Assembly (NCBI GenBank): GCA_964389615.1
Contig: CAYMDW010000001.1
Span: forward strand, 6,475 to 70,474
DNA from: an uncultured Gammaproteobacteria bacterium
Lineage (GTDB): Bacteria > Pseudomonadota > Gammaproteobacteria > JABCZS01
Reading direction: 5' to 3'
DNA: 64,000 nt
The first letter of the stretch is position 1. Each line of letters opens with the position of its first letter. Positions 2,337 through 50,260 of the stretch are shown in pieces. The translations under genes and the position numbers were made by a program. The notes beneath the pieces are model-generated. The model did not search any database. It saw nothing but the letters and a program-made list of their open reading frames with translations, and had not been told where the DNA came from.

Positions 2337-3008
2337 ATGAGCTGGGAAAATCGGCTGAAAATCGAGTACGAACAAGTCTATTTCAAGCGATTGAAGGAAT
2401 TTTTAAAGAAAGAACAGGAATCCGGTTATACAGTCTACCCTGAAAAAACCCATATTCTGAATGCATTCCGACTCACAGAATTTGAAGACACTCGGGTCGT
2501 CATCCTAGGACAGGATCCCTATCATGGCCCAGGCCAAGCCATGGGGCTGGCTTTTTCAGTGCCCAAAGGGATCCCTTTCCCGCCCTCCTTGCGCAATATT
2601 TTTCAAGAATTAAACACCGATTTGAATATTGAAATCCCCAAGAGCGGCGATCTCACGCCCTGGGCAAAACAAGGCGTCTTATTGCTCAACACGGTGCTGA
2701 CCGTGCGTGCGGGGCAAGCCCATTCCCATGCAGAGCAGGGTTGGGAAGCCTTTACTGACAAAGCGATCCGCTTACTGAATGAGGAATCAAAACATCCCGT
2801 GATTTTTTTACTCTGGGGAGCACATGCAAATCGCAAGGCCAAGCTCATCACAAACAAACAACACCTGATCTTGTCAGCCCCCCACCCCTCCCCTCTGTCC
2901 TCCTATCGTGGTTTTTTCGGATGCAAACATTTTTCCAAGGTGAATGAATTATTGAAGGCTCGCGGTTCCAAGGAGATCAACTGGGATCTTGAACAACAGC
3001 ATAAATGA
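2337..3008 (+). CDS. ung: uracil-DNA glycosylase (family 1)
   Basis: GQDPYH motif, HPSPLS motif, 223 aa. Confidence 0.9.
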   Translation: MSWENRLKIEYEQVYFKRLKEFLKKEQESGYTVYPEKTHILNAFRLTEFEDTRVVILGQDPYHGPGQAMGLAFSVPKGIPFPPSLRNIFQELNTDLNIEIPKSGDLTPWAKQGVLLLNTVLTVRAGQAHSHAEQGWEAFTDKAIRLLNEESKHPVIFLLWGAHANRKAKLITNKQHLILSAPHPSPLSSYRGFFGCKHFSKVNELLKARGSKEINWDLEQQHK

Positions 3009-3042: not shown

Positions 3043-4263
3043 TTGCAGATGAAGGTACTTATTCTGGGCGCAGATGGATTTTGTGGTTGGCCCACTGCAT
3101 TGCATCTTTCACATTTAGGGTGCGAAGTGATTATCGTTGATAATCTTTCGAGACGAAACATCGATAATGAGCTTGAGACCTCTTCACTCACGCCGATTAA
3201 ATCCATGGGCGAGCGGATCCGTGCCTGGAAAGCCTTGACGGGTCGAACCCTCACCTTTCATAACATCGACATTGCCCAAGACTATTCATCCCTTCTTCAG
3301 CTTTTAGTCAACCAACGTCCAAATGCGATCGTTCATTTCGCAGAACAGCGCGCTGCGCCTTATTCCATGAAAAGTGCCAAGCACAAATGCTACACCGTGT
3401 TTAATAACCTCAACGCCACCCATAATCTCTTGGCTGCGCTCGTCGAAGCTAACCTTGATTCCCATCTGGTTCATTTGGGCACCATGGGGGTTTACGGCTA
3501 CGGCACTGCTGGATTAAAAATTCCAGAAGGGTATTTAAAGATCAAGGTGGAGACAGACGAGGGAGAAGCACTGTCACAAGACATTCTCTATCCGGCTAAT
3601 CCAGGCAGCATTTACCATTTAACCAAAACACAGGATCAGATGTTTTTTGCGTATTACAATAAAAACGATAAGATCCGAATCACCGATTTACACCAAGGCA
3701 TTGTTTGGGGCACTCAAACGGAAGAAACGCGCCGAGACGAGGCCTTAATCAACCGTTTCGATTACGACGGGGACTATGGCACCGTACTGAATCGATTTCT
3801 GATGCAAGCGGCCATCGATTACCCGCTCACCGTACACGGCACCGGGGGTCAAACCCGCGCCTTCATCAATATTCAGGACACGGTGCGATGCATCCAGCTG
3901 GCGATTCTTCATCCTCCCGCCAAAGGGGAACGCGTGAAAATCATGAATCAAATGACCGAAACCCACCGCGTGATTGATCTGGCCAAGCTCATTTCCAAGC
4001 TCACCGGTGTTCCGATCCAACACATCGCTAATCCTCGCGTTGAGGCAGAATCCAATGAGCTTCACGTAGAAAATTCTACCCTGCTCTCTTTAGGGTTAAA
4101 ACCGATCACGATTGAAAATGATTTGCTGTTTGAAATCAAAGAAATCGTCGAGAAATACGCGCATCGCGTCGACCTGAGCAAGATCCCCTGCAGCTCGACC
4201 TGGCGCCCTGAGCTCAAGGTCGAACGCACAGCAAGCCATGAGGCGATTTGCCTTGCAGAATGA
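3043..4263 (+). CDS. sqdB: UDP-sulfoquinovose synthase-like SDR (SQD1/SqdB family)
   Basis: N-terminal GADGFCGWPTALHLS...VIIVDNLSRR...LTPIKSMGERIRAWKALTG and FAEQRAAPYSM closely track plant SQD1 (GGDGYCGWATALHLS...CIVDNLVRR...LTPIASIHDRISRWKALTG, FGEQRSAPYSM). Length 406 aa is typical of SQD1/SqdB and longer than GalE-type epimerases. Confidence 0.75.
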   Translation: MQMKVLILGADGFCGWPTALHLSHLGCEVIIVDNLSRRNIDNELETSSLTPIKSMGERIRAWKALTGRTLTFHNIDIAQDYSSLLQLLVNQRPNAIVHFAEQRAAPYSMKSAKHKCYTVFNNLNATHNLLAALVEANLDSHLVHLGTMGVYGYGTAGLKIPEGYLKIKVETDEGEALSQDILYPANPGSIYHLTKTQDQMFFAYYNKNDKIRITDLHQGIVWGTQTEETRRDEALINRFDYDGDYGTVLNRFLMQAAIDYPLTVHGTGGQTRAFINIQDTVRCIQLAILHPPAKGERVKIMNQMTETHRVIDLAKLISKLTGVPIQHIANPRVEAESNELHVENSTLLSLGLKPITIENDLLFEIKEIVEKYAHRVDLSKIPCSSTWRPELKVERTASHEAICLAE

Positions 4264-5353
4264 ACCCAAGGTCATCGGCTTGATCCAAGCCTACAATGAG
4301 GGCCCCTTGTTGGCCCTCAGCATTTCTCATGCCCTGCATTACCACGTGGATGAAGTGTTTCTGTTGAACCATTTTCGTGATAATCAAGGTTTTGCCCAAA
4401 CCAGGGCCTTAAAAAAATTATGGGGCGACCGACTCCATCTGATTGATTATTTCAAGAATGAGTATTATCAAGAAGCGCAGACCAATGCCCTGATTGAAAT
4501 CAGCAAAGCAGCTTCCCCTGACTGGATCTGGGTGCTTGATGCCGATGAATTTTTGTTATGCCCTGCACATCAATCGCTTAAAAAAATCTTGAGTGAAGTT
4601 GACTCTCAATGCATCGCTGTTCGTTATGAGCTCAAAAACTGGGTATCACAAAACGATTTCGATGAAAATCAACTGAGCCAATATTTGAGACTAGAAGACA
4701 GATCCCTCGCGAATAAGCATTATGCAAACCTATGGTCAAAAACCATGCATGATGAAATCGTCCGCGGGAAGCTGAATTTCTATGACATTCCTTTCAATTC
4801 AAAAGTGATATTCAGAGGCAATATTCCAGAAATATGGTTGGCGACCGGTGCACACACGCTTCTTAGCCCAAATCCTGCGAATGAAATACTGACTGATCAA
4901 TTGGAAGTGGCCCATTTCCCTTTTCTCAGTAAAAATCGTCTCGCCAGCCGGGTGAGCCGTAAAAAACAGCTGACCAATCAAGGCTTTTCTCCTATGCAAG
5001 GCTGGCAAAGCCAGATGATTGCAACCTTTCATCACGAAAATCGTCTCGATGACTTCTGGAACGCACATTCGATCTCCAAGAATCCTGCCATCGGCAAAAA
5101 ACCGAGCACTGTAAAAGATCAGCGCTTTATCCAAAGCATTCAACCGATTATTGCATTATTGGAAAATACACTTGAAAGTCCTGAGCACTTCCCCAGTTCA
5201 GGCGAAGACACCCAGGTTTCCTTTGATGTGATGGTTCAGTCTTACAAGAAATTTAAACTCATGTCCCCTGCCCTGCAAGTTAAGCGCAATTGGTGGCGCT
5301 TGCTGAGGCCCACGGCCTTGTGGGCACTCGCACGGGTGAAGCTCTTTAATTGA
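4238..5353 (+). CDS. glycosyltransferase, GT-A fold (GT2/GT92-like) with a DxD motif
   Basis: VIGLIQAYNEGPLLALSISHALHYHVDEVFLLNHF...WIWVLDADEFL fits a GT-A Rossmann-like N-terminus with DADE as the DxD motif. The ORF overlaps the sqdB 3' end by ~26 nt, implying co-transcription and coupling. Confidence 0.45.
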   Translation: MRRFALQNEPKVIGLIQAYNEGPLLALSISHALHYHVDEVFLLNHFRDNQGFAQTRALKKLWGDRLHLIDYFKNEYYQEAQTNALIEISKAASPDWIWVLDADEFLLCPAHQSLKKILSEVDSQCIAVRYELKNWVSQNDFDENQLSQYLRLEDRSLANKHYANLWSKTMHDEIVRGKLNFYDIPFNSKVIFRGNIPEIWLATGAHTLLSPNPANEILTDQLEVAHFPFLSKNRLASRVSRKKQLTNQGFSPMQGWQSQMIATFHHENRLDDFWNAHSISKNPAIGKKPSTVKDQRFIQSIQPIIALLENTLESPEHFPSSGEDTQVSFDVMVQSYKKFKLMSPALQVKRNWWRLLRPTALWALARVKLFN

Positions 5354-6050
5354 TTGCATACACCATGTTAACGGTACTGCTGACTGTCAGCTCCCCTGGC
5401 ATCACCTGAGAAGCGGTACCCCGGGCATCCATGGCCATGGCCATTTCGCGGTAAACGGGGCCTGGGTTGCTCTCAAAGCTCGCGATTTCTTTAATCCCTT
5501 TGATCGTCACGCCCGCCGATTTCGCAATCACCTCTGCGGTCACTTTAGCCTGGGCAATGGCCTGTTCTAAAGCTTTTTTCTGGAGCGCTGCGATATCCGT
5601 GTGACCAAACCGTAAATTATCGATTTGATTAATTCCGGAATCAACCAGGGTATCCAGCAAGGAGCCAAAAGTATTCAGATTGTGGTATTCCACGGTGATT
5701 TGATTCGACACGCGATACCCTGTGATTTTGGTTTCACTGCTTTCACGGTCATGGAAATACACGGGAATGAGTTGGTATTGGCTGGTTTGCAAGGTATCGT
5801 TTTTGGCAAGTTTGGCTTGCAAGGCTTTAGTGACCTTTTCCATGCGCTTGGCATTGTCCTTCACTGCAGCATCCGCTGTTTTAGCCTGGCTTGTGACCGC
5901 AATGGTGATCGAGGCCATGTTGGGCTCCACCTTCACCTCGCCTGTCGAGGAAAGGCGAATTACATTGCCATCCAGATCATCCGCCAAAGCCAAGGGAGCG
6001 AAACCTAAGGCTAAGACCAGAGGGATTAAACGAAGGGATTGTTTTAACAT
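5346..6050 (-). CDS. SIMPL/DUF541 periplasmic protein (YggE-like oxidative-stress defence protein)
   Basis: Signal peptide MLKQSLRLIPLVLALGFAPLALA. The LRFGHTDIAALQKKALEQAIAQAKVTAEVIAKSAG block is typical of DUF541. Confidence 0.55.
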   Translation of the reverse strand: MLKQSLRLIPLVLALGFAPLALADDLDGNVIRLSSTGEVKVEPNMASITIAVTSQAKTADAAVKDNAKRMEKVTKALQAKLAKNDTLQTSQYQLIPVYFHDRESSETKITGYRVSNQITVEYHNLNTFGSLLDTLVDSGINQIDNLRFGHTDIAALQKKALEQAIAQAKVTAEVIAKSAGVTIKGIKEIASFESNPGPVYREMAMAMDARGTASQVMPGELTVSSTVNMVYAIN

Positions 6051-6099: not shown

Positions 6100-8847
6100 T
6101 TACTGAGTCAAAGCCACCGTGCGCTTATCGAAAGAGGGCGTTTTGCCTTGGTGTGCAAAGGCATTTTTCTCTGCAATCATCCGGTGGGCGAAAGGTGGAA
6201 TCTTAATGCCCGAATTTTTGAGCTGATTGTAGAGCTCTGCCATTTCCACCTGGATCATGGTTTTTCGTTTAGGGTGTGTAGAGGATGTTTCGTCAAGCCA
6301 TTGCTGACGTGCTTCAATCGCCTCCATCACATCCGATCGCATTTTCTTTTCATGATCATCCTTCCAAGTCACCGCGTCTGCCTCGAAGCTCTTAAACATC
6401 GAATGCTCCGTTTGCGCACTGAAATCAACCCCTGGCCACTCTCGAATCGTCTGCTTCATCAGATGATTCAAGCCTTTGGTCAGGGTTTCTTCGTTGATCT
6501 TGAGGCTTGCAATCGTGCCCAATTGCAATAAAACTCCCTGATAAAATTTGATCTGAACGTCTTCGTCTTCGGCTATCTCGAGCAAATGCAAGGCCCCGTT
6601 ACGGATCACATTCAAGGTTGGATAATCGAAGAGTGAATTGACCAGCACACGAGCTCCCTTGAGGTTGATCTGCTCCGCGATGGCGGCGAGCTTGATCAGA
6701 TCGTGTTTCAACTCGAATAAATCGTTTGATATATTTTCCGGAGATTGATAAGGGGTAACCAGCGCCATCCATTCCAAAAGCAAGGCCTTGACCTGGTCAG
6801 CATCTTCTTTGCTTGAAAAGCCAATAAGAGGAGTTGAGCTGCTGCTGGATGAGGACGAGGAAGAGGACACAACCGGTGCCTTGACCTTGGCTTTTCCTTT
6901 TTCAATCGTATAAAGCGCTTTATTCAGTATCATCCGTTCATTTTCAGCGCGCTCTGCTTCTTCAGCTTTCCTTCGTGCTTCTTCAGCAAGACGCGCAGCT
7001 TCTTCTTGGGCAAGCTCTGCTGCTTTTGCATCTTCCAAGGCCTTGCGTGCTCGAACCGCGTCTTCCCCTTTTTCATAAATCTCGTCGAATTTTTTGACGA
7101 GATCCAAGTGAAAGTGGCCAGTGACACCCAATTTACCCAAGATATCTTTGGCTAAAAGTTTTTGATTGATCTCATGGCTTCCTTCAATGAAATAATCGAT
7201 CCCGCTTTGAAGAATTTTAGTGAGGGTGGTCTGACGCAAACCTGAGCCTTTGAATAATTTCTCAACACTGCCTTTATCACTTTTCAGTGATGATAGGGTT
7301 TTGTAAACCCGATTAAACACCTCTTCGAGGATCGCGTCCCGCTTAGCCTGCGCTTCTCTGATCTCTCTGCGTGCCTCAGCCTGTGCCTTCTCTTGCTGGT
7401 CGCGCGCTTCTCTGGCCTCTGCTTGCTTCTGTTCATAATCTTTCAGCGCTTCCAAACGTACTTTCTCTTGAGCAGCCAACACTTCGGGGTCAGAAGTCAC
7501 GATCTTGGAAACCTTGGCTTCGATTTTTTTATTACGCTTTGTCTCTTTCACTGTTACGTCGGGAGCAGGTTCTGGCGACTCGGGTTTTGTTTCATCAACC
7601 GGCAAATTCCCTTTCGTGAAATACCTCAGAATATTATCTAAGATTTCAACCTGATCTTGATACAGCCCACTTCTTTTGAGCAAGGAATGTATCAAAAGGA
7701 CGATGACGCCAAGTTTGAATGATCTCAAAGAGGAATACAGATCACCGGACAACTCTCTGGATTTCGCTTTGACTCTGTCCGCAAGATCTTTGGCCTTTTC
7801 ATCAATTTCCGATTGGAGTTCTTTGAACTCGTCTAGATCGAGTTCTCCCGCCGTATGTTGTGAATACAACTGCCTGTATTCGTCATCTAAAGAGCGACGC
7901 TCATCTCCAAATATTTTACCCGCAGACTCAAATCCCAGTGAATCCAAGAGCGCTTCAAAGCGCCCCAGAGAATGCTCATTCGCTTGAGAGAAATCATAAG
8001 AGGTGTCACGAAGCGCACGTTTGATGTAAGCCTCCACCAATTTTTTGGCGAGATTAAGGCTCGCATAACTCGCGTCAAGTTCAGCTCCAGAGCTGGCTTT
8101 TCTAATTCCTTCATGGAATTCCAGCATATTGGCAAAAACGCGACGGATGATTCGAGTGTCATGAAAATCAGCATTCATCAATCTTTCACGCTCAATCAAA
8201 TACACCACGAAATTATGGAGGTACCCTTCCACGACGAGCCTCTCAGGAATGTCCTTTTTCAATAATTGACTCAAAGAGTTAATATGCTTATCGGTGTAAT
8301 GGTAGAGTTTACCCTCTGTATCACTGAGAAGTTTGCTTGAAAAGCCCACCAAATCAGCAATCGCAAACAGCTCAAATTCCGTGAATGACTGGAGTTTCCC
8401 ATTATCTGATTTAAAACGAGTCAATGCACCAGATTGCTTGATGCGCGTGATGGATCTGATGTTATTTTTAATGGTGATCTCAAGGTACTTGTCATTCAAG
8501 GCATGCATGACCCTCATCGCTTTCTCTTCATTCGCTTCGAATTGTTCTTCACCCTTATCATCCTCAGACAAAAGCTTTTTCACGCCCTCTAAAAACAGCT
8601 CAGCAGGCGCTTCATCGAGCATGCCAACGTAAAATTTGTATTCGATTGAAGAAAAATCCACTGGAGCAAGGGGCTCAATCTCGGGGCTCGCATCAAAAAA
8701 CTCTCCTTGTCGAGTCAGCAACCCTCGTGGATGAGGTGCATTTTGTCCCCCCATGACCTGAGGCATCACGGCCGTGAGCGCCAAAAATCGTACCAATCCA
8801 TGGCTTAATCGTGTGAATAAACTGGGCGCTTTTTTTACCTTTTTCAT
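6100..8847 (-). CDS. large (915 aa) coiled-coil protein with a poly-Ser tract, paralog A; effector-like, function unknown
   Basis: Long ORF. K/E/A-rich heptad-like stretches (AEEARRKAEEAERAENER), an 11-Ser tract, and a C-terminal ~415 aa nearly identical to the downstream paralog. Confidence 0.5.
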   Translation of the reverse strand: MKKVKKAPSLFTRLSHGLVRFLALTAVMPQVMGGQNAPHPRGLLTRQGEFFDASPEIEPLAPVDFSSIEYKFYVGMLDEAPAELFLEGVKKLLSEDDKGEEQFEANEEKAMRVMHALNDKYLEITIKNNIRSITRIKQSGALTRFKSDNGKLQSFTEFELFAIADLVGFSSKLLSDTEGKLYHYTDKHINSLSQLLKKDIPERLVVEGYLHNFVVYLIERERLMNADFHDTRIIRRVFANMLEFHEGIRKASSGAELDASYASLNLAKKLVEAYIKRALRDTSYDFSQANEHSLGRFEALLDSLGFESAGKIFGDERRSLDDEYRQLYSQHTAGELDLDEFKELQSEIDEKAKDLADRVKAKSRELSGDLYSSLRSFKLGVIVLLIHSLLKRSGLYQDQVEILDNILRYFTKGNLPVDETKPESPEPAPDVTVKETKRNKKIEAKVSKIVTSDPEVLAAQEKVRLEALKDYEQKQAEAREARDQQEKAQAEARREIREAQAKRDAILEEVFNRVYKTLSSLKSDKGSVEKLFKGSGLRQTTLTKILQSGIDYFIEGSHEINQKLLAKDILGKLGVTGHFHLDLVKKFDEIYEKGEDAVRARKALEDAKAAELAQEEAARLAEEARRKAEEAERAENERMILNKALYTIEKGKAKVKAPVVSSSSSSSSSSSTPLIGFSSKEDADQVKALLLEWMALVTPYQSPENISNDLFELKHDLIKLAAIAEQINLKGARVLVNSLFDYPTLNVIRNGALHLLEIAEDEDVQIKFYQGVLLQLGTIASLKINEETLTKGLNHLMKQTIREWPGVDFSAQTEHSMFKSFEADAVTWKDDHEKKMRSDVMEAIEARQQWLDETSSTHPKRKTMIQVEMAELYNQLKNSGIKIPPFAHRMIAEKNAFAHQGKTPSFDKRTVALTQ
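6160..7345. repeat. direct repeat copy 1 (~1.2 kb), shared 3' coding module of the paralog pair
   Basis: By-eye alignment of 6241-6720 with 8990-9470 shows roughly nine in ten positions identical. Similarity decays near 7340 / 10100. Confidence 0.6.
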
Positions 8848-49683: not shown

Positions 49684-49718
49684 GGGTGAATACGCATGGT
49701 ACTCCATGCAATTCACCC
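49684..49718. repeat. palindromic intergenic element, intact copy (GGGGTGAAT-AC-GCATGG-TACT-CCATGC-A-ATTCACCC)
   Basis: Nested inverted repeats give a ~14 bp interrupted stem. The first 28 nt are near-identical to 24609-24636. Confidence 0.5.
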
Positions 49719-49765
49719 GCAAATGTGCAACATTTGACATCCGTTCACAATCCCTGCGGGCTTGC

Positions 49766-49800
49766 GGATAAATTGGCCGGAGTACCGGCCGTATTTATCC
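49766..49800 (-). terminator. stem-loop immediately 3' of rnpB (GGATAAATTGGCCGG-AGTA-CCGGCCGTATTTATCC)
   Basis: 15 bp near-perfect stem. Lies ~20 nt past the rnpB 3' end on the minus strand. Confidence 0.4.
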
Positions 49801-49821
49801 CTACGCACAATTCAAAATTAA

Positions 49822-50169
49822 GTTCAGAGCCGATCGATAAGCCGGGTTCTGTCGTGAACAGCCATTCATCTAGGCCTGGCATCACTGCCAGGCTCAAGCA
49901 ACCTACCCGAACCCAAGCGTGGGTACGCTCTGTGTGGGTTCCTATTTGGTCTTGCTCCAGGTGGGGTTTACCCTGCCACGCTTGTTACCAAACGCGCGGT
50001 GCGCTCTTACCGCACCTTTTCACCCTTACCCCCCGAAAGGGGCGGTATATTTTCTGTGGCACTTTCCGTCGGCTTGCGCCGCCCAGGCGTTACCTGGCAC
50101 CTTACCCAATGGAGCCCGGACTTTCCTCTAAGGACACAAGGCCCCTAGCGGCTGTTTGTTCGACTCTGA
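49822..50169 (-). ncRNA. rnpB: RNase P RNA (bacterial type A)
   Basis: Minus strand contains GAGGAAAGUCCGGGCUCCAUUGGGUAAGGUGCCAGGUAACGCCUGGG, ...GGGUGAAAAGGUGCGGUAAGAGCGCACCGCGCGUUUGGUAACAAGCGUGGCAGGGUAAACCCCACCUGGAGCAAGACCAAAUAGGAACCCACACAGAGCGUACCCACGCUUGGGUUCGGGUAGGUUGCUUGAGCC... and ACAGAACCCGGCUUAUCGAUCGGCUCUGAAC. These are near-identical to E. coli M1 RNA conserved regions (P4, P10-12, P15-18, 3' P1 strand). Confidence 0.85.
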
Positions 50170-50260
50170 GGGGCCTATTCTACGCCTCCCGCCCCTCAGT
50201 CTCAAGCTGAAATCTCAATTCTCATATATAGTAAATCAATGACCCCAAGGAACCGCGTTT

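Follow-up and report, generated by a model that had tools for sequence, protein, structure and literature searches.

A predicted UDP-sulfoquinovose synthase gene overlaps the gene of an uncharacterised GT-A-type glycosyltransferase in a probable Legionellales-like gammaproteobacterium

In a 64,000-nucleotide stretch of DNA from an uncultured gammaproteobacterium (contig CAYMDW010000001.1; the whole stretch is called the window here), two overlapping open reading frames (ORFs) occupy positions 3043-5353 of the plus strand, as a preliminary description of the sequence had reported. The first very probably encodes a functional UDP-sulfoquinovose synthase, SqdB, which would make UDP-sulfoquinovose from UDP-glucose and sulfite. 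The second encodes a glycosyltransferase (GT) of a rare, uncharacterised family, PF13704, whose members are paired elsewhere with a pyruvyltransferase. We give an even chance to the reading that the two genes form a cassette which places sulfoquinovose on an acceptor of the cell envelope, with sqdB replacing the pyruvyltransferase gene as the source of negative charge. The SqdB is in itself ordinary, and the occurrence of sqdB in non-photosynthetic bacteria is already established; what is new here is the family of the partner and the Legionellales-like host.

The sqdB gene and its product

On the basis of the ORF list and of homology we place sqdB at 3049-4263 (+), encoding 404 residues. The listed ORF, 3043-4263 (+), opens with a TTG at 3043 and would give 406 residues; the ATG two codons later, at 3049, is the more likely start, and the protein read from it is 100% identical to a database protein (P0001). 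The GT gene lies at 4238-5353 (+) and encodes 371 residues with a DxD motif at D101/D103; an alternative TTG start at 4253 would give 366 residues, a product that is also a database protein (P0121). The 3' end of sqdB and the 5' end of the GT gene share 26 nt (4238-4263, +), reduced to 11 nt by the TTG start of the GT, and an overlap of this kind would imply that translation of the two genes is coupled.

A phmmer search of the PDB aligned residues 4-389 of the window SqdB to residues 3-384 of Arabidopsis SQD1 (entry 1qrr; also 1i24) with an E value of 6e-95, at 44.8% identity over the full length, while all other short-chain dehydrogenases/reductases (SDRs) in the PDB scored at most 37 bits. 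The GalE model reached 44 bits and covered only the N-terminal Rossmann part of the protein, in keeping with the earlier assignment of the SDR as SQD1/SqdB-like over its whole length and not as a GalE-type epimerase. In a search of 5.8 billion proteins, thousands of bacterial SqdBs matched at 70-77% identity, many of them named UDP-sulfoquinovose synthase by JGI; they include cyanobacterial SqdBs, for example that of Xenococcus PCC 7305, with cyanobacterial identity at about 71%. Identity to the SqdB of Sinorhizobium meliloti is 62-64% (tblastn against plasmid and chromid records, and further comparison). There, too, an overlapping glycosyltransferase gene, sqdD, stands directly downstream of sqdB, and the S. 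meliloti sqd operon (sqdBDC) expressed in E. coli yields sulfoquinovosyl glycerol (SQGro) (bioRxiv 10.1101/2022.08.18.504050). In a neighbour-joining tree rooted on SQD1, the window SqdB falls inside the bacterial crown together with S. meliloti, cyanobacterial and actinobacterial SqdBs.

Active-site residues were compared, in SQD1 numbering, in an alignment of the window SqdB with SQD1 and 119 homologues. The SDR catalytic triad T145, Y182, K186 and the adjoining H183 are kept, as they are in 119/119 close homologues, and so are H96, R101, M146, Y149, S180, Q209 and R327; G8, G11 and G14 of the GxxGxxG NAD-binding motif are also present. Position 185 is Thr, as in Agl3, the synthase of the archaeon Sulfolobus acidocaldarius, and not Ser as in SQD1. 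The kept residues take part in catalysis in SQD1 or are essential to Agl3 (PMC4388408; the roles of the SQD1 residues are those that this paper cites from Mulichak 1999). The equivalents of the Agl3-essential His95, Arg101, Met145, Ser180 and Thr185 (H96, R101, M146, S180 and T185) are all present; at the equivalent of Agl3 Glu147 the loop has different gaps throughout the bacterial SqdB clade, and this position was left unscored. The preliminary description had named a position outside the SQD1/SqdB/Agl3 clade and the lack of residues characteristic of SQD1 as observations that would speak against its assignment. What we find is a protein nested within the bacterial SqdB clade that keeps all of the characteristic residues scored.

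The NCBIfam equivalog model NF041015 gives the window SqdB 350.5 bits, under its cut-off of 575. We rejected this as a sign against function, since the verified S. meliloti SqdB (332 bits), a cyanobacterial SqdB (350) and a near-full-length SQD1 (485) also score below 575; the cut-off evidently defines a clade narrower than the SqdB family. Because it excludes them, bacterial SqdBs are annotated merely as 'NAD-dependent epimerase/dehydratase'.

In length, full-length homology and catalytic residues the window SqdB is thus like SQD1 and the SqdBs of S. meliloti, R. sphaeroides and Synechococcus, and, as in known sqdB operons, its gene comes first with a transferase gene directly downstream. It differs in its Legionellales-like host, in one Gly-to-Ala change in the GxxGxxG loop and in a partner gene of another family. 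The preliminary description had also called sulfoquinovose chemistry unexpected without photosynthesis, which is overstated. Sulfoquinovosyl diacylglycerol (SQDG) or sqdB is documented in Rhizobiaceae, Caulobacter, Gram-positives and environmental heterotrophs (bioRxiv 10.1101/2022.08.18.504050; PMC4796936, which cites Villanueva 2014 for sqdB in non-photosynthetic bacteria), and we found sqdB with a GT1-family gene on a Microbulbifer plasmid.

The downstream glycosyltransferase

The GT passes the Pfam threshold for PF13704 (Glyco_tranf_2_4) with 32.6 bits against a cut-off of 27.5. Among 36 aligned members of its family, PF13704 is found in 36/36, PF00535 in 26 and GT92 in 16. Of the columns of the family alignment, 23 are invariant, and the window GT keeps every one, D101-A-D103-E-F, D183, H206, H226 and G255-W-Q among them. 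An AlphaFold (AF2) model built from this alignment (pLDDT 87.3) is predicted to have the GT-A fold: Foldseek against the PDB matched it with probability 1.0 to SunS, AvpGT, LARGE1, BcsA, TarP and heparosan synthase. Since the matched families (GT2, GT92, SunS, TarP, BcsA) are mostly inverting, the mechanism of the GT is, by analogy, probably inverting and its product beta-linked.

The usual partners of SqdB are GTs of other families, and the GT resembles neither. Neither the GT nor its family profile matched any PDB sequence; when the profile was compared with S. meliloti SqdD (GT8) by hhalign, the probability was 1.6%, with no homology detectable; and a GT-B fold or Glycos_transf_1 domain, as in SqdX/SQD2 (GT4), was not found in the GT, whose Pfam families are of GT2 type only. 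The partner is therefore, as first proposed, a DxD-containing GT-A-type enzyme of unclear family (D101-A-D103) and not a SqdX or SqdD.

With a maximum KD19 hydropathy of 1.09 and no hydrophobic or transmembrane segment, the GT is predicted to be a soluble or peripheral protein; its C-terminus is a basic, aromatic tail, WWRLLRPTALWALARVKLF. Most family members carry a C-terminal coiled coil of ERDA repeats and an SWRxT tail; in the subclade of the window GT both are missing. The family is rare, with 38 clusters among the 5.8 billion proteins at the sensitivity of a word index. We considered and rejected the GT as a secreted Dot/Icm effector, as the family is found in free-living Actinomycetota, Cyanobacteria, Planctomycetota and others.

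The usual partner of the GT family

Genomic contexts of the GT family were gathered from several sources and screened by tblastn; the scan of genome contigs used the motif [YW][VIF]FDADEF, outside which the WVLDADEF of the window GT falls. At about 22 loci (L001, L002, L007-L009, L011, L012, L015-L019, L021, L022, L025, L027, L031/L032, L040-L042, L044, L045) a polysaccharide pyruvyltransferase gene (PF04230) ends exactly at the start of the GT gene, as in the modules at 7153-9197 of L001, 7144-9194 of L002, 1730-3806 of L031 and 3684-5569 of L040. The hosts are Thermoleophilia, Kuenenia, Pirellulales, Actinomycetes, Synechococcaceae, a betaproteobacterial metagenome-assembled genome and others, and the phyla Actinomycetota, Planctomycetota, Cyanobacteria, Pseudomonadota and others. 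The genes around the pairs are unrelated housekeeping genes (uvrA, rho, a tricorn-like protease) or wholly unconserved. Because the neighbours are unrelated and the upstream partner is constant, the canonical unit of the family is a self-contained pyruvyltransferase-GT pair. This uncharacterised and widely scattered module was brought out by the present analysis.

The GTs of these modules are 30-48% identical to the window GT, which keeps their invariant residues, and in both cases the partner gene lies directly upstream, overlapping or abutting the GT start. The window differs in that this partner is SqdB, and in that its GT subclade is without the ERDA repeats. By tblastn, sqdB is absent from all of the roughly 22 pyruvyltransferase-GT loci; conversely, no pyruvyltransferase homologue was found anywhere in the 64-kb window, where sqdB fills the upstream slot.

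Conservation of the sqdB-GT pair

Only three other sequences (L029, L003 and L030) are more than 50% identical to the window GT, and two metagenome scans yielded no further relatives above this level. Three GT sequences of the subclade form a near-trichotomy, with identities of 73, 72 and 68%. One of them, from a JGI metagenome (L029), is collinear with positions 3818-5765 of the window at 74% nucleotide identity, and carries the C-terminus of sqdB, the GT gene and a SIMPL-domain gene in the same order; here the sqdB-GT overlap is 8 nt. L030 is truncated upstream of its GT gene. Pairwise Nei-Gojobori estimates of the ratio of nonsynonymous to synonymous divergence (dN/dS) for the GT against L029 and L003 are 0.07-0.10. 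The C-terminal 147 codons of sqdB encode sequences with 85% amino-acid identity between the window and L029, at a proportion of synonymous differences (pS) of 0.80, with synonymous sites saturated. From the low dN/dS of the GT and the conservation of the SqdB protein at saturated dS it follows that both genes are under purifying selection and are maintained by it.

The GC content of sqdB is 0.488, that of the window 0.487, and both its GC and its third-position GC (GC3) are like those of neighbouring genes. Recent horizontal transfer of sqdB was rejected for this reason and because sqdB is also present in L029.

Three substitutions in the GT, W22G, T108C and A203T/S (at about 4301, 4559 and 4844), are common to the two sqdB-linked GTs (the window's and P0122 of L029) only; every other family member, including the L003 orthologue, which has no sqdB, carries the alternative residue at positions 22, 108 and 203. 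The sites adjoin conserved motifs, and the substitutions may be adaptations of the donor site or plain shared ancestry. With two sequences, they are a lead only.

Gene clusters around related SqdBs

The SqdBs closest to that of the window (72-77% identity: P0002, P0004, P0006, P0007) lie next to a small PF00535 GT2 gene and a gene for a second SDR epimerase. The same clusters, all from uncultured bacteria (L004 1-11573; L005 1-8198; L036 600-8500; L038 2000-10300), also hold genes for a DegT aminotransferase, methyltransferases, GT4 enzymes and a GT-C protein, either YfhO (L004) or PMT_2 (L036). Judged by gene content, they are clusters of an envelope-glycan or polyprenyl-phosphate-sugar style and not sqdX/sqdD operons. 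This SqdB subclade thus seems to be used generally with partners of the GT2 superfamily, and the clusters suggest that sulfoquinovose or a derivative of it goes into envelope glycans rather than SQDG. Clusters of this type (L004, L005, L036-L039) share with the window the nearest SqdBs and a GT2-superfamily partner in place of SqdX or SqdD. Their GT2 proteins (PF00535, 258-310 residues) show, however, no tblastn homology with the window GT at an E value of 1e-5, and they are multi-gene clusters of glycan type, whereas the window has an isolated pair.

A precedent for sulfoquinovose outside lipids is the N-glycan of archaeal Sulfolobus, for which Agl3 of S. acidocaldarius makes the UDP-sulfoquinovose (PMC4388408). 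The system is archaeal and its synthase belongs to a distant clade (haloarchaeal homologues are 35-37% identical), with no homologous transferase known to be shared. Our literature search found no description of bacterial sulfoquinovose outside SQDG or SQGro.

Proposed function and alternatives

We propose the following route for the cassette. SqdB would turn UDP-glucose with sulfite into UDP-sulfoquinovose by way of NAD+-dependent oxidation, dehydration and addition of sulfite, the route of SQD1 and Agl3. The gene would be co-transcribed and translationally coupled with that of the soluble GT-A enzyme, which would take UDP-sulfoquinovose as its sugar donor; whether it does so we regard as evenly balanced. 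The acceptor that receives the sugar would come from genes elsewhere in the genome; most likely it would be a lipid-linked glycan of the envelope or a different envelope glycoconjugate, and not diacylglycerol. The resemblance of the GT to inverting GT2 and GT92 enzymes would make a beta-sulfoquinoside the probable product, in contrast to SQDG, which is alpha-linked.

In most bacteria with the usual pair, the GT would add a hexose to which the pyruvyltransferase then gives the negative charge of a pyruvate ketal. In the lineage of the window, the pyruvyltransferase would have been lost and sqdB would have come to occupy the upstream slot, so that the donor sugar already bears the negative charge when it is transferred. 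In a hexose, a pyruvate ketal typically spans O4 and O6; in sulfoquinovose, the sulfonate is at C6. The swap of partners, pyruvyltransferase elsewhere and SqdB here, suggests that the role of the cassette is to add an anionic hexose, and a terminal hexose with a negative charge may be reached by either of two chemically distinct, interchangeable routes. A generalisation, in which the PF13704 GT is the constant half of an 'anionic sugar cap' cassette and the variable half is either a pyruvyltransferase or a UDP-sulfoquinovose synthase, seems to us improbable, and we offer it tentatively.

Coupling of the two genes is supported by the overlap of the ORFs in the window and in the approximately 74%-identical L029, by selection on both genes and by the native base composition of sqdB. 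A selected sqdB coupled to an unrelated GT2-like enzyme hints that sulfoquinovose is placed on other bacterial envelope molecules, and the clusters of the closest SqdBs agree with this. If the 'anionic sugar cap' generalisation is true, the product would be a beta-sulfoquinosylated glycoconjugate of the envelope, the first in bacteria that is not the sulfolipid SQDG, and in a bacterium that is probably intracellular an anionic sugar at the surface could affect recognition by, or interaction with, a host. The identities of the enzymes are ordinary; the biological role beyond them is what we infer.

Several observations weigh against this proposal. Known instances of the sqdB-GT pair number two, that of the window included. 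In the contexts collected for more than 30 other members of the GT family, tblastn found sqdB near none, which means that the family has no intrinsic tie to sulfoquinovose. The closest orthologue of the GT (72%), in L003, stands in the order fadL, ung, GT, with no sqdB. No gene of an acceptor pathway, flippase or polymerase lies near sqdB-GT, whose flanks are fadL, ung and a SIMPL-domain gene, and no sulfite source (cysH, cysIJ) was seen among the 64 kb. Residue 9 of SqdB, an 'x' position of the GxxGxxG motif (window 3070-3075), is Ala, and Gly in 119/119 homologues and in SQD1. Finally, the Foldseek TM-scores of the GT model are low, 0.3-0.4, with the core GT-A domain matched and not the whole protein; donor specificity and stereochemistry are judged here from fold and family only.

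The arrangement in L003 bears most directly on an explanation by mere adjacency, in which sqdB was inserted or retained upstream of a resident GT that uses another donor (for example UDP-Glc or UDP-Gal), as the L003 orthologue presumably does, and UDP-sulfoquinovose serves a transferase encoded elsewhere. In L003, the GT start overlaps the stop codon of ung (TTGA), just as compact genomes overlap unrelated ORFs, and the other members of the GT family all work without sqdB. Of the coupling claimed in the preliminary description, then, the overlap of the ORFs is borne out in the window and in L029; functional coupling is not, given the ung-GT arrangement of L003 and a family otherwise partnered by pyruvyltransferases. 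In a comparison limited to three genomes of the subclade, sqdB may have been gained once and then lost in L003, or gained after L003 had split off. Against adjacency, the sqdB-GT overlap persists in two genomes whose divergence has saturated dS, the gene directly 3' of sqdB in characterised sqd operons is that of the sulfoquinovose transferase, and the 64 kb contain no other candidate transferase. We consider adjacency unlikely overall, though to be taken seriously.

Somewhat less likely still is the synthesis of a sulfolipid, with the GT-A enzyme replacing SqdX or SqdD and transferring sulfoquinovose to diacylglycerol, glycerol or dihydroxyacetone, to give SQDG or a related phosphate-sparing lipid. 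All characterised bacterial sqdB operons make SQDG and have the transferase gene directly downstream: cyanobacteria have sqdB-sqdX (GT4), alphaproteobacteria sqdB-sqdD-sqdC with sqdA (GT8), with the overlap of sqdB and sqdD in S. meliloti, and the Microbulbifer sqdB is likewise followed by its GT1-family gene. The window shares this order of synthase gene and overlapping or adjacent GT gene. SqdD, moreover, is like the window GT a soluble DxD enzyme of GT-A fold, and one whose acceptor is small (bioRxiv 10.1101/2022.08.18.504050); a pair of genes without glycan-assembly neighbours would fit a lipid or small-molecule acceptor, and the basic, aromatic tail of the GT could bind membranes. The window GT is, however, unrelated to SqdD and to GT4 enzymes. 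It is PF13704/GT2-like and probably inverting, while the linkage in SQDG is alpha and the enzymes that make it are retaining, and the polysaccharide pyruvyltransferase that usually accompanies the family points to glycan acceptors. None of sqdA, sqdC, sqdD and sqdX is present in the 64-kb window, and the closest SqdB relatives sit in glycan-type clusters. The acceptor is thus probably not diacylglycerol.

Legionella-type bacteria are often cysteine auxotrophs without sulfate assimilation. We think it very improbable, however, that the SDR is inactive in vivo, or stops without sulfite at UDP-4-keto-glucose-5,6-ene or UDP-glucose-5,6-ene and feeds another deoxy-sugar to the GT: Agl3 does release UDP-glucose-5,6-ene when no sulfite is present (PMC4388408), the window shows no sulfite-generating genes and the glycine-rich motif is unusual, but the catalytic residues are all kept, identity to sulfolipid-making SqdBs is 70-77%, purifying selection is strong and many sources of sulfite are possible beyond the window.

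Flanking genes and host

The two-gene unit is preceded by ung, for uracil-DNA glycosylase (2337-3008, +; NF003589, 336 bits), which ends 34-40 nt upstream of sqdB, and is bounded on the right by a convergent gene of the SIMPL/DUF541 (YggE-like) family (5346-6050, -), which is syntenic in L029, L030 and L003. In L003, a fragment of an IS66-family transposase (3667-4191) lies directly after the GT gene and before the SIMPL remnant. Further left is a FadL/TodX-type outer-membrane transporter gene (933-2282, -), syntenic in L003, and at the left edge of the window a 199-residue ORF (320-919, -) has a weak match to the AbiEi_4 antitoxin domain, at 18.6 bits below the cut-off. Consensus scans for promoters and terminators gave no more sites than shuffled controls and were not used.

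The window is of chromosomal origin and includes pheST, thrS, infC, secA, lpxC, mraZ, rsmH, RNase P RNA and tRNA-Val, and a dcw cluster with ftsZ, ftsA, ftsQ, ddl and murB. A homologue of Wip-family Dot/Icm effectors (17404-18630, -; 190 bits, under a cut-off of 300), a protein whose match to the cyclin N-terminal domain is borderline (21919-22554, -; 22.9 bits against a cut-off of 23) and an ankyrin-repeat protein (23264-24544, -) point, as far as sequence goes, to a Legionellales-like intracellular lifestyle. The closest relatives of FtsZ are metagenomic (85-94% identity), and the best named ones, at about 69%, are generic Gammaproteobacteria. The host is probably a Legionellales-like, host-associated gammaproteobacterium, and to this extent it looks as non-photosynthetic and host-associated as had first been supposed.

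A few other features of the window may be recorded. The class A RNase P RNA is at 49822-50167 (-; 342 bits), and the ORF at 49686-50210 (+), which overlaps it, was discarded as spurious. The PheT ORF (13380-15326, -), 15 nt after pheS, has only 648 residues, and its match to the bacterial pheT model begins at profile position 158, so that PheT seems to be without its usual N-terminal domain of about 120-150 residues. Two tandem giant ORFs at 6100-8847 (-) and 8844-11534 (-), of 915 and 896 residues, have no Pfam match; their C-terminal portions of about 467 residues, with a coiled coil and a run of 11 serines, are 81% identical, and their N-terminal halves are unrelated. The two look like a pair of duplicated, diversifying proteins of effector type.

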